Positions 14,277 through 18,689 of a stretch of 64,000 bases of DNA are shown here, piece by piece. The stretch is taken from positions 64,258 through 128,257 of the forward strand of contig CAMCQH010000001.1 of assembly GCA_945877035.1 (NCBI GenBank), written 5' to 3'. Below the pieces are notes generated by a model, which saw only the letters and a program-made list of their open reading frames with translations, did not search any database and was not told where the DNA came from. Positions within the stretch are counted from its first letter, which is position 1, and every line of letters begins with the position of its first letter. Position numbers and translations under genes: made by a program. The stretch comes from an uncultured Clostridium sp. (lineage in GTDB: Bacteria; Bacillota; Clostridia; TANB77; CAG-508).

Positions 14277-16649
14277 CTATTTTCTAATTTCAATTCCTTT
14301 ATTCTCTAAATCTTTAATGATACTCTCTAAAATACTATTAATTTCATCATCATTTAAAGTTCTATCAGGTGTACCAAATGTTAATGAATATGCAATACTT
14401 CTCTTATTTTCATCAATATTTTTACCTTCATAAACATCAAACACTTTAATATCTAATAACAATTTTCCAGCTTTTTTCTTAATTAAAGTTTCAACATCTT
14501 TTGATGTCATATCTTTACTTACTAAAACTGCGATATCTTTTTTGATAGTAGGAAATTTTGAAATTTCTTTAAATTTCATTTTTCCAACTCTTTTTGCTAA
14601 AAGTTTATCTAAGTTTATTTCCATTACATAAACCGCTTCTTTTTCTACTGATGGATGTATTCTTCCTAAAATTCCTACCATATCATTATTTACTGATATT
14701 TCTGCTGTTTGACCTGGGTGGAATTCTGCTGGCATTTGTTTTGGCATTACAAAACTATATCTATTTTCATATCCTAAATAGTCTAGCAATTCTTCTGTTA
14801 CACCTTTAATATCATAGAAGTCTACATTTTTGCTACGTCCTATTCCTGTATAATATTCACCTGTCATTAACACACATATTTTTTGATTTTCTCCGTATTC
14901 TTCTTGTTTTTTCCAGAAGCCTTTTCCTATTTCAAATAAACATACATCTTTGTTTTCACGAGCTTTATTATATTCATATATTTTATATAATGATGGTATC
15001 ATACTATATCTTAATGTGTTTCTTTCTTCTGTTATTGGGTCTAATAATTTTACTTCTTCAAATTCATCTGTTGTGAATTTGTGAACATCTTTGTCATTTA
15101 TTAAGATATATGATAATGTTTCATTTAGTCCCATGTTTGACATTTTTGCTCTTATTTTTCTTGTTGTTTTGTCTAGACTTCCCATTTTCATTGGAACTAC
15201 TGGTAGTTTTCCTTCTATATTGTCAACTCCATAGATTCTTCCAACTTCTTCTATCAAATCTGCTCTTATTGATATATCTATTCTTCTTGTTGGTACTGTA
15301 ACAATTACTGAATTTTCTTTTGCATCTGTTTTGAAATCTGATTTTCTAAACACTTCTACTATATCTTCTTTAGATATATTTGTTCCAAGTACATCGTTTA
15401 TTTCTTGATATGTTATTTCTATAACTTTTTCTTTATTATCTGTTACATCATATTTTACAATTCCTGTTTCAATTTCTGCATCTGCATATTTTTCAAGTAA
15501 TGTACAAGCTCTGTCCATTGCCATATATGTTCTTGCTGGGTCTAGTCCTTTTTCAAATCTGTTACTTGCTTCACTTCTTAATATTTTATTTGATGTTTTT
15601 CTTACTTTTACTGAATCAAAAATTGCTGATTCTATTACAATGTTTTTTGTTGTTTCTTCTACTTCTGTGTCAAGTCCTCCCATAACACCTGCTAAGCCAA
15701 TTGCTTTTTTATCATCTGCAATTACTATATCTTCTGTTGATAAAGTTCTTTCAATATTATCAAGTGTTGTTAATTTTTCGCCTTCTTCAGCCATTCTTAC
15801 AACTATTTTATTTTCTAAATTATCTGCATCATAGAAGTGTAATGGTTGACCTAGTTCTAACATTACATAGTTACTTATATCTACAACATTGTTTATTGGT
15901 CTTATTCCACATGCGATTAATCTATTTTTTATGAAATCTGGACTTTCTTTTATTGTTACATTTTTTGCTTTTCTTGCTAAAAATAATTTACAATTTTCAG
16001 TATTTACATCAACTGAAAATTCTTTATTTATATCTTCACCATTTTCTTTATATGAGATTTCTACTGGTTTTACTGGTTTATTATAGATAGCACCTAATTC
16101 ATATGCCATACCTAATATACTTAGTAGGTCTCCTCTATTTGCTGTTAATTCGAAATCTATAACACCATCATCTAAGCCCATATATTTTACTGGGTCACCA
16201 CCTACAGGTGCATCTTCTGGTAATTCGTGAATTCCATTTTTGTCAGCTTCTGATAAGAATTTTTTATCAATTCCTATTTCATATAAAGCACATAACATAC
16301 CATTTGATTCTTGACCTCTTATCATTCCTTTTTTAATTTTAAAATCTCCTGGAAGTTCAGCTCCAACTTGTGCAACAATTACTTTTATTCCTTTTCTTGC
16401 ATTAGGTGCACCACATACTATATTTAAAACTTCACTTCCAATATCTACTTTGCATAAATGTAAATGGTCTGAGTCTGGATGTGGCTCACATTCTTTTATT
16501 TCTCCAATTATTAAATTTGTAGCATTTATTAGCTTTTCTGCTGAATCATATTCACTACCAGCTTTTGTCATAGCTTCTGCTATTTCTTCTACTGTTAGAT
16601 TTTCATCTAAATCTATATAATCTTTTACAAAATTTAAACTTAAATTCAT
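14277..16649 (-). CDS. pheT: Phenylalanine--tRNA ligase beta subunit
   Basis: Start at ATG 16649 (MNLSLNFVKDYIDL...) behind RBS GAGGAGG. Has tRNA-binding, B3/4, B5 and FDX-ACB regions. The upstream extension is an artefact of the repeat element. Confidence 0.9.
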   Translation of the reverse strand: MNLSLNFVKDYIDLDENLTVEEIAEAMTKAGSEYDSAEKLINATNLIIGEIKECEPHPDSDHLHLCKVDIGSEVLNIVCGAPNARKGIKVIVAQVGAELPGDFKIKKGMIRGQESNGMLCALYEIGIDKKFLSEADKNGIHELPEDAPVGGDPVKYMGLDDGVIDFELTANRGDLLSILGMAYELGAIYNKPVKPVEISYKENGEDINKEFSVDVNTENCKLFLARKAKNVTIKESPDFIKNRLIACGIRPINNVVDISNYVMLELGQPLHFYDADNLENKIVVRMAEEGEKLTTLDNIERTLSTEDIVIADDKKAIGLAGVMGGLDTEVEETTKNIVIESAIFDSVKVRKTSNKILRSEASNRFEKGLDPARTYMAMDRACTLLEKYADAEIETGIVKYDVTDNKEKVIEITYQEINDVLGTNISKEDIVEVFRKSDFKTDAKENSVIVTVPTRRIDISIRADLIEEVGRIYGVDNIEGKLPVVPMKMGSLDKTTRKIRAKMSNMGLNETLSYILINDKDVHKFTTDEFEEVKLLDPITEERNTLRYSMIPSLYKIYEYNKARENKDVCLFEIGKGFWKKQEEYGENQKICVLMTGEYYTGIGRSKNVDFYDIKGVTEELLDYLGYENRYSFVMPKQMPAEFHPGQTAEISVNNDMVGILGRIHPSVEKEAVYVMEINLDKLLAKRVGKMKFKEISKFPTIKKDIAVLVSKDMTSKDVETLIKKKAGKLLLDIKVFDVYEGKNIDENKRSIAYSLTFGTPDRTLNDDEINSILESIIKDLENKGIEIRK

Positions 16650-16664
16650 TATTTTTCCTCCTCT

Positions 16665-16815
16665 TGAGACAATTGGGACAGTCCAAAATTGTCTCATTAT
16701 TTTTGTTGTTTTTTGTCGATTTTTGTTATCGTTACCTTATTTATTTTTTATATCATTTTTCGACATTATTCTATCAATTTTATGAGACAAATTTGGACTG
16801 TCCCACATGTCTCAT
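16665..16815. repeat. Pair of inverted GGGAC-core hairpins bracketing a ~85-bp AT-rich insert in the pheS-pheT spacer
   Basis: tgagacaattgggacagtccaaaattgtctca (16665-16696) and atgagacaaatttggactgtcccacatgtctcat (16782-16815), in opposite orientation. The second overlaps the pheS stop. Confidence 0.75.
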
Positions 16816-18021: not shown

Positions 18022-18300
18022 TAAAAAATCCACTTCATCCTATACATATATAGGACGAAATGGATTATATTCCGTGGTACCACCTAATTTTATTAATTAA
18101 TTTTCATATTTATCAATTAACCTCATTATAGTTTTAACGGTGCAACCGCTTCTTTCTACTTAAATTAGTTGTTCAAAAGAAGTCCTAAAAAGTGAAATTT
18201 CTATATATTTTTATTTGAATATTTCTCAACCTAGAATATTCTCTCTGTAAAATAATTTTAAATATATGTACTTTGCTTTTTAATTGGATTTTCTAATATA
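18022..18300 (-). promoter_or_regulatory. T-box leader (Phe) controlling pheST
   Basis: The minus strand carries AATTAGGTGGTACCACGG (T-box motif, 18072-18089). It overlaps the terminator stem aatccatttcgtcctata/tataggatgaagtggatt followed by a T-run. An upstream AGAGAGA box and GAAAUUUCAC with UUC-A give a candidate Phe specifier. Confidence 0.8.
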
Positions 18301-18370
18301 TTTATTATATTAACACGATTTTGTTTATTTTACAAGTTTTTTTCAAAATTTTGTGATAAAAATTTTATAA

Positions 18371-18406
18371 AGGAACATTTACATAGTTTATATGCAAAAT
18401 GTTCCT
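18371..18406 (-). terminator. Terminator downstream of the SCIFF gene
   Basis: Stem aggaacattt / aaatgttcct. On the minus strand it is followed by a T-rich run. Confidence 0.6.
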
Positions 18407-18422
18407 CTTTTTGAAACCTGTA

Positions 18423-18569
18423 CTACTTATTAGGATTCTCGCACTTCTGATTTCCTACTGTGCAGGAAGTCTTACATGCTGACTGGCATGATGTCTGGCA
18501 CTCGCCACAACCGCCATGTTTAAGACTGTTTGTTAATGTCTTTCCCGTAATAGTTTTTACATGTTTCAT
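18423..18569 (-). CDS. scfA: SCIFF six-cysteine ranthipeptide precursor (48 aa)
   Basis: Below the ORF-track cutoff. Own translation gives MKHVKTITGKTLTNSLKHGGCGECQTSCQSACKTSCTVGNQKCENPNK, RBS GGTGGTG. GGCGECQTSCQSACKTSCTV is the SCIFF signature, with six Cys. Confidence 0.9.
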   Translation of the reverse strand: MKHVKTITGKTLTNSLKHGGCGECQTSCQSACKTSCTVGNQKCENPNK

Positions 18570-18689
18570 TTTTTCACCACCTTTTATAAATGTGCGTGGT
18601 TTATAGTTACGAATACTAATTTTTTAGTACATCGAATAGTATATATTAAAATTATATTGTTGTCAAAATTTATTTAAATTATAATAATA

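Follow-up and report, generated by a model that had tools for sequence, protein, structure and literature searches.

The window, i.e. the whole 64-kb stretch of DNA analysed here (C1:64258-128257 of the focal genome G000), encodes what is, judged by its sequence, a real, intact and full member of SCIFF, a family of small six-cysteine clostridial peptides. This gene (scfA) is probably a genuine functional one in a lineage that lacks ScfB, the SCIFF maturase (TIGR03974, cut-off 425 bits), and its product would work there without that enzyme. G000 is a metagenome bin of 1.70 Mb and 65 contigs with a completeness of 79.95%, and the window lies on a contig of 129 kb.

The scfA gene and its surroundings

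The features of the locus are the following (window coordinates):

18423..18569, minus strand: scfA, 48-aa SCIFF precursor-type peptide with six cysteines and the block GGCGECQTSCQSACKTSC (open reading frame and profile matches)
18575..18583, minus strand: Shine-Dalgarno sequence AAGGTGGTG, 5 nt 5' of the ATG (read from the sequence)
18638..18666, minus strand: sigma-A type promoter TTGACA-17-TATACT, 11/12 consensus positions (promoter scan)
~18369..18408, minus strand: hairpin, probable intrinsic terminator, 14 nt past the stop codon, with a U-rich tract next to it (folding)
18048..18293, minus strand: pheS-pheT T-box leader, first unit downstream, in the usual place of scfB (RF00230, 94.2 bits)
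18700..21450, minus strand: inserted islet 5' of the SCIFF promoter, made up of an Rpn nuclease gene and a pilin-like/FGE-fold gene (homology breakpoints; profile matches)

The 48-codon ORF at 18423-18569 (minus strand) translates to MKHVKTITGKTLTNSLKHGGCGECQTSCQSACKTSCTVGNQKCENPNK, which matches TIGR03973 (81.7 bits, cut-off 50; model positions 1-43 of 43) and PF13165 (84.3 bits, cut-off 27; whole model covered) and is the sole SCIFF match in a profile search of the G000 genome. The SCIFF signature which an earlier note on this DNA had read in the then unannotated 48-aa ORF is thus borne out. The features by which the family is recognised are six cysteines in about 45 residues together with the block GGCGECQTSCQSACKTSC, and a host of the class Clostridia; the G000 peptide contains both of the former, its block being identical to that of all 55 maturase-paired SCIFFs compared, and its host belongs to this class, in which the class-level sample is 79% SCIFF-positive. 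The cysteines form the array C-x2-C-x3-C-x3-C-x3-C-x6-C, where the four central residues are spaced i, i+4, i+8 and i+12, and the donor Cys32 as well as the reported acceptors Thr34 and Thr37 are present. No signal peptide was found in the sequence, nor any protease or exporter gene accompanying it, and the exact peptide is not present in the protein collection looked up. Matches of the leader (VKTLTGKT) to ubiquitin in a PDB search were spurious and were treated as chance.

The hairpin following scfA had been taken by the earlier note as the gene's own terminator (18371-18406), and its properties agree with this reading, as the arms 18371-18380 and 18397-18406 form a perfect 10-nt inverted repeat and the full hairpin (about 18369-18408) has a dG of about -19 kcal/mol (z -3.6 vs shuffles) and is followed by UUUAUAAAAUUUUUAU. 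A strict terminator scan gave no call for it because the T-tract is interrupted. Promoters at 9-12/12 consensus positions precede all SCIFF genes examined in the genus except one, and a post-stop hairpin lies at the same position in nearly every SCIFF gene examined, whether orphan or paired; nearly all orphan loci combine a promoter of at least 9/12, a strong ribosome-binding site and a hairpin past the stop codon. With its strong predicted sigma-A promoter, strong ribosome-binding site and putative hairpin terminator, the G000 scfA is predicted to form its own transcription unit.

The T-box leader downstream is followed by pheS and then pheT, and a weak promoter-like site was located by the promoter scan at 18346..18318. 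Upstream, the ORF 18791-19606 (minus strand) encodes an Rpn/PDDEXK_2 protein (TIGR01784, 84.6 bits; PF12784, 133 bits), so that both neighbours named in the earlier note, the pheS T-box and the Rpn gene, are as it had described them. By plain translation the Rpn ORF reaches only profile positions 1-231 of 273.

The same note had raised the idea that the Rpn/pilin-FGE islet displaced the maturase, which does not hold. Homology with three relatives (G016, G087 and G130) stops at about 21450 and picks up again at about 18700, and the islet is thus a 2.75-kb insertion between a divergent 409-aa gene and the SCIFF promoter that is absent in all three. It did not displace the maturase, since these islet-free relatives carry the same maturase-less SCIFF; G016, for example, has the order 409aa-SCIFF-small gene-T-box-pheS, with neither islet nor maturase. 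Synteny with G604 likewise speaks against displacement, and in the paired loci of the genus scfB lies downstream of scfA (15/15), on the side opposite to the islet.

Near relatives differ in whether they have the SCIFF cassette at this site (locus L107, for instance, reads 409aa-small gene-T-box without SCIFF), and neither flanking repeats nor target duplications nor any mobile-element signature were found around it. The small gene belongs to a family of about 90-130 aa (N-terminus ..C.EYYFDSKKYN..) which has its own promoter and lies just 5' of the pheS T-box in relatives (L031:9663-9944, L104:2264-2584 and L107:2255-2650); G000 has no such gene there. SCIFF has another location in 12 other species, between an SNF2/SWIM-like gene and trmFO, and the equivalent site of G000 holds an unrelated 96-aa ORF (C30:8030-8317).

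The pheT gene of G000 (C1:78537-80954; window 14277-16697) shows a bimodal conservation within the genus, where the identity of PheT to that of G000 is either 61-91% (about 65 species) or 33-44% (about 70 species), and species with nearly identical SCIFF-ScfB loci occur on both sides of this split. The bimodality points to either a pair of xenologous pheT (pheST) lineages or a very deep division of the genus, and a PheT-based species tree was abandoned because the copies may be xenologous.

Absence of the maturase and distribution of orphan SCIFF genes

A profile search of the 80%-complete G000 genome for ScfB gave a best TIGR03974 match of 26.9 bits (cut-off 425), and tblastn with two ScfB queries from the genus detected distant radical-SAM genes only. 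No remnant or pseudogene of a maturase adjacent to SCIFF emerged from tblastn, either in G000 or at seven orphan loci of its relatives. All 16 radical-SAM matches of the genome over the PF04055 cut-off are outside the window, in agreement with the statement of the earlier note that the 64 kb contain no radical-SAM gene.

The possibility that the maturase lies in the unassembled 20% of the bin, G000 then having a SCIFF system of the usual kind whose scfB is unlinked, draws on the incompleteness of the bin, from which the ribosomal protein gene rplB is also missing, and on the unlinked scfA and scfB genes of some Clostridia (e.g. genus g99 and G222). It is nevertheless decidedly improbable given the relatives. 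The closest syntenic relative with SCIFF-T-box-pheS, G604 (the same record as locus L105), reaches at most 22.7 bits with TIGR03974 at 95% completeness; among four further relatives of 96-98% completeness, G019, G087 and G131 gave no match and G134 reached 55 bits, under the cut-off of 425. The sample contains 16 further genus species with a PheT at least 85% identical to that of G000; ScfB is found in none of these, and SCIFF in six. The pairing of ScfA with ScfB is thus found neither in G000 nor in these relatives. The earlier note had proposed that scfA is a stand-alone precursor gene without its maturase, to be given up if all relatives had the enzyme as a normal unlinked gene; this proved not to be so, as no ScfB was found in G000, G016 or G604, nor in 27 of the 42 SCIFF-carrying species of the genus.

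The same pattern is seen in wider samples of the genus, order and class, and the absence of the maturase thus does not stem from the incompleteness of G000 alone. Among 150 species of the genus, SCIFF was detected in 42 and ScfB in 15 (directly after SCIFF in 15/15), counts which, here as below, are samples of metagenome bins whose relatives are mutually non-independent. The genus orphans comprise 27 species, of which 11 have genomes of at least 90% completeness. A point against the main reading is that SCIFF can be dispensed with in this genus, being absent from 108 of the 150 species. In the order sample (200 genomes of at least 90% completeness from 34 genera), 30 genomes carry SCIFF and five a true ScfB, all five in the genus of G000, which leaves 25 orphan genomes in nine genera and three families (25/30 SCIFF carriers of the order), one of them, G544, probably owing its gene to a mis-binned contig. 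The class sample (300 genomes from 175 genera, at least 90% complete apart from G000) behaves differently, with SCIFF in 238 and ScfB in 238 genomes; the family and genus tallies match but for two genomes, namely G000 with the peptide alone and one genome with the maturase alone, and no orphan occurs among the other 237 SCIFF carriers. A few class genomes (G386, G410, G338, G286 and G222) have an scfB which is unlinked but present.

The G544 locus (L232, on G544:C93) is 98.7% identical over a 4.2-kb stretch to L068 (G051:C1), although the two genomes are assigned to different families. Cross-family transfer of SCIFF was rejected for this pair, as the whole stretch is near-identical, and the 5.7-kb G544 contig is probably mis-binned. 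At the paired loci (L026, L027 and L088-L100), a gene of about 480 aa directly follows scfB in 14 of 15 cases, and its sequence motif reads as an Orn/Lys/Arg-decarboxylase-like protein (PLP fold).

Orphan SCIFF genes were found in at least five genomic contexts, and no neighbour gene is common to these, which leaves no conserved neighbour as a candidate partner. This also speaks against the view that a non-ScfB enzyme, either another radical-SAM protein or one of a wholly different class, modifies the orphan peptide in trans with the leader as its recognition element. Such an enzyme is conceivable, as the leader N-terminus MKH[VI]KT[LI] is conserved in orphans and G000 holds two radical-SAM/SPASM genes that are in no named family (C1:25005-26186, 393 aa; C64:451-1821, 456 aa). 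However, these two genes occur in 21/150 and 5/150 genus genomes and in 3/27 and 2/27 orphan genomes, i.e. without co-occurrence with orphan SCIFF, and were rejected as trans maturases. No SPASM enzyme is common to the orphans either, since SPASM domains are wholly missing from G019 and G087 and the SPASM enzymes of other orphan genomes come from assorted, unrelated systems (HxsB, ACGX-system, TIGR04463-like or NirJ2-like). A stand-alone PqqD/RRE, LanC or YcaO enzyme was excluded for G000, in which none of these gave a match. Modification in trans is, on balance, unlikely.

The 393-aa gene, which lies outside the window, recurs at 82-93% identity in 21 of the 150 species of the genus, to either side of the PheT split, and looks horizontally mobile. 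G079 has a gene 100% identical to the 456-aa one, which few other genomes of the genus carry; the 2.9-kb contig of the G000 gene (C64) is possibly mobile DNA or else mis-binned.

Constraint, codon usage and possible mode of action

Orphan SCIFF is under strong and long-lasting purifying selection on its protein sequence. Over a 26-codon core of 26 genus orphans, pS is 0.80 and pN 0.042 (ratio 0.05), with nearly all of the core pN coming from one variable position, and pN/pS of the core ranges from 0.02 to 0.07 across orphan groups with synonymous sites near saturation. The 12 species with the derived, maturase-less arrangement of SNF2-like gene, SCIFF and trmFO (TrmFO proteins 77-96% identical) have a core pS of 0.79 and a pN of 0.0175; as synonymous sites turned over here while the protein stayed fixed, selection persisted after this arrangement had arisen. 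The leader is also conserved in orphans (MKH[VI]KT[LI]..L), with a pN/pS of 0.42, and another protein could still recognise it.

Residues differ in how far they are held. The 18-residue block GGCGECQTSCQSACKTSC does not vary among the 55 paired SCIFFs (15 genus sequences and 40 of the class sample), whereas 11 of 48 orphans deviate from it, at G19, E23, Q25 and T26 only; the six cysteines and the segment SCQSACKTSC are unchanged in all 48. Fisher's test for block alteration in orphan against paired sequences gives 1e-4, a value taken as descriptive because the sequences are related. This pattern fits a relaxation of residues which the peptide would require only as a substrate of ScfB, with the cysteine array still constrained.

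A decaying, functionless relic left behind by the loss of scfB might account for the patchy occurrence of SCIFF (42/150 species) and for its absence at this site in some close relatives. Such a relic is very unlikely, as the orphan sequences read contain neither stop codons nor frameshifts and always keep the six cysteines, the low core pN/pS at near-saturated synonymous sites extends to groups defined by a maturase-less arrangement, and promoter, ribosome-binding site and terminator have been kept.

The codon usage of the orphans is unusual. Genus orphans (loci including L028-L032 and L067-L087) have a GC3 of about 0.40 vs a genome GC3 of 0.133, and that of the G000 gene (0.41) ranks among the highest 0.16% of 48-codon windows of its genome, whereas GC3 is 0.14 for the 15 SCIFFs of this genus that are paired with a maturase; orphans at the level of the order deviate less (mean 0.29). 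The orphan codons include CAG, GAG, AAG and GGC. Translational selection was rejected as the cause, because the highly expressed genes tuf, fusA, rpsL and rpsG (combined GC3 0.137) avoid these same codons. A conserved mRNA structure was discarded since the RNAalifold consensus fold is no better than that of codon-column shuffles, and a general trait of SCIFF genes likewise, as elsewhere in the class the GC3 of SCIFF tracks that of its own maturase (0.44 vs 0.46, r 0.77). In a crude test, polarised third-position changes number 41 from A/T to G/C vs 29 in reverse, and there is thus no sign of drift to the A/T bias of the host. A foreign origin and a constraint on synonymous sites are both possible reasons for the high GC3, and neither conflicts with the main reading.

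The foreign origin would take the form of a solo scfA cassette acquired horizontally from higher-GC Clostridia, possibly more than once, whose codon usage reflects its source; the gene would then not descend from an operon already present in the ancestor. The gap in GC3 between orphans and both paired genes and genome points in this direction, as do the correlation of SCIFF with its maturase in the class, the five or more genomic contexts of the orphans, and the orphan peptide type MKHIKTLNT...TVGNQ, which matches that of families with 40-48% GC. Against it, no close nucleotide match was found among 40 class-level loci, the best identity outside the genus being 0.81, so that a recent donor was rejected; peptide similarity follows shared synteny, as vertical descent predicts; the third-position changes do not move towards A/T; and flanking repeats and target duplications are absent. 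Such an acquisition, which appears rather unlikely, concerns solely where the gene came from and does not conflict with the main explanation, namely that a genuine scfA probably functions without ScfB.

As to how the orphan peptide might function, it would act without thioether cross-links made by ScfB, most likely, as a best guess, through its cysteine array as free thiols, disulfides or ligands of a metal or iron-sulfur centre. The site of action is probably intracellular, because of the missing signal peptide and the lack of an accompanying protease or exporter gene. Cross-linking by ScfB would then be an added layer, mostly dropped by this order of gut bacteria with reduced genomes. One may tentatively go further and suppose that the primary role of SCIFF is maturase-independent, e.g. 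that of a metal- or iron-sulfur-binding or redox-buffering cysteine-array peptide, and that this role is all that remains here. The rare G/C-ending codons of the genus orphans, seemingly at equilibrium, may point to a further layer.

Comparison with known SCIFF systems

SCIFF, defined in 2011, is among the most conserved small peptides of Clostridia. Ranthipeptides are defined by thioether cross-links from cysteine to a C-beta or C-gamma which are made by a radical-SAM/SPASM enzyme. The G000 product has the donor and acceptor residues in its sequence but was not filed as a ranthipeptide, since no cognate enzyme gene was found. CteA/CteB of Clostridium thermocellum (PDB 5WGG) and Tte1186a/Tte1186 are examples of the ScfA-ScfB ranthipeptide system (TIGR03973 with TIGR03974). 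In the literature, every ScfA is accompanied by an ScfB maturase (TIGR03974), usually within 500 bp, and peptide and maturase are treated by the authors of the family as strictly paired (PMC5300114). What is known of SCIFF comprises in-vitro chemistry that revealed a single thioether and one study of mutants, which connected the system with quorum sensing and with genes of sporulation (PMC8326336, PMC8102284). A literature search retrieved no paper describing orphan SCIFF lineages.

An order which keeps the peptide under strong selection without the enzyme amounts to a natural experiment, suggesting that part of the function of SCIFF is separable from cross-linking. It sorts residues by role, with G19, E23, Q25 and T26 free in orphans and the six cysteines and SCQSACKTSC fixed. 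If a maturase-independent role is true, the thioether product alone would not explain the near-universal conservation of SCIFF in Clostridia. For genome mining, it means that ranthipeptide callers based on the maturase miss orphans, while tools keyed to the peptide over-call clusters.

By sequence, then, G000 carries a member of the SCIFF family, which as a system departs from the defining ScfA-ScfB pairing. Like the peptides of ScfA-ScfB systems, it is full-length and scores above threshold, with the invariant core, Cys32, Thr34 and Thr37; a match to the CteA leader chain in 5WGG was obtained with its leader, and, as at canonical scfA loci, a strong promoter precedes the gene and a hairpin directly follows it. 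Unlike in these systems, no ScfB was found in G000 or in most SCIFF carriers of its order, while the class sample fits strict pairing (0/237 exceptions besides G000). The genomes with unlinked scfB (G386, G410, G338, G286 and G222) resemble G000 in that scfA is a self-contained unit without the maturase gene next to it, but they encode a full-scoring ScfB elsewhere, and none was found in G000 and its relatives. The one-to-one pairing of peptide and maturase is also broken in NF040492 ('not_ScfB'), an ScfB-related orphan maturase, under whose cut-off the ScfB proteins of the genus score (577 vs 855); NF040492 is an enzyme without a peptide, and G000, with a peptide without an enzyme, is its mirror image.
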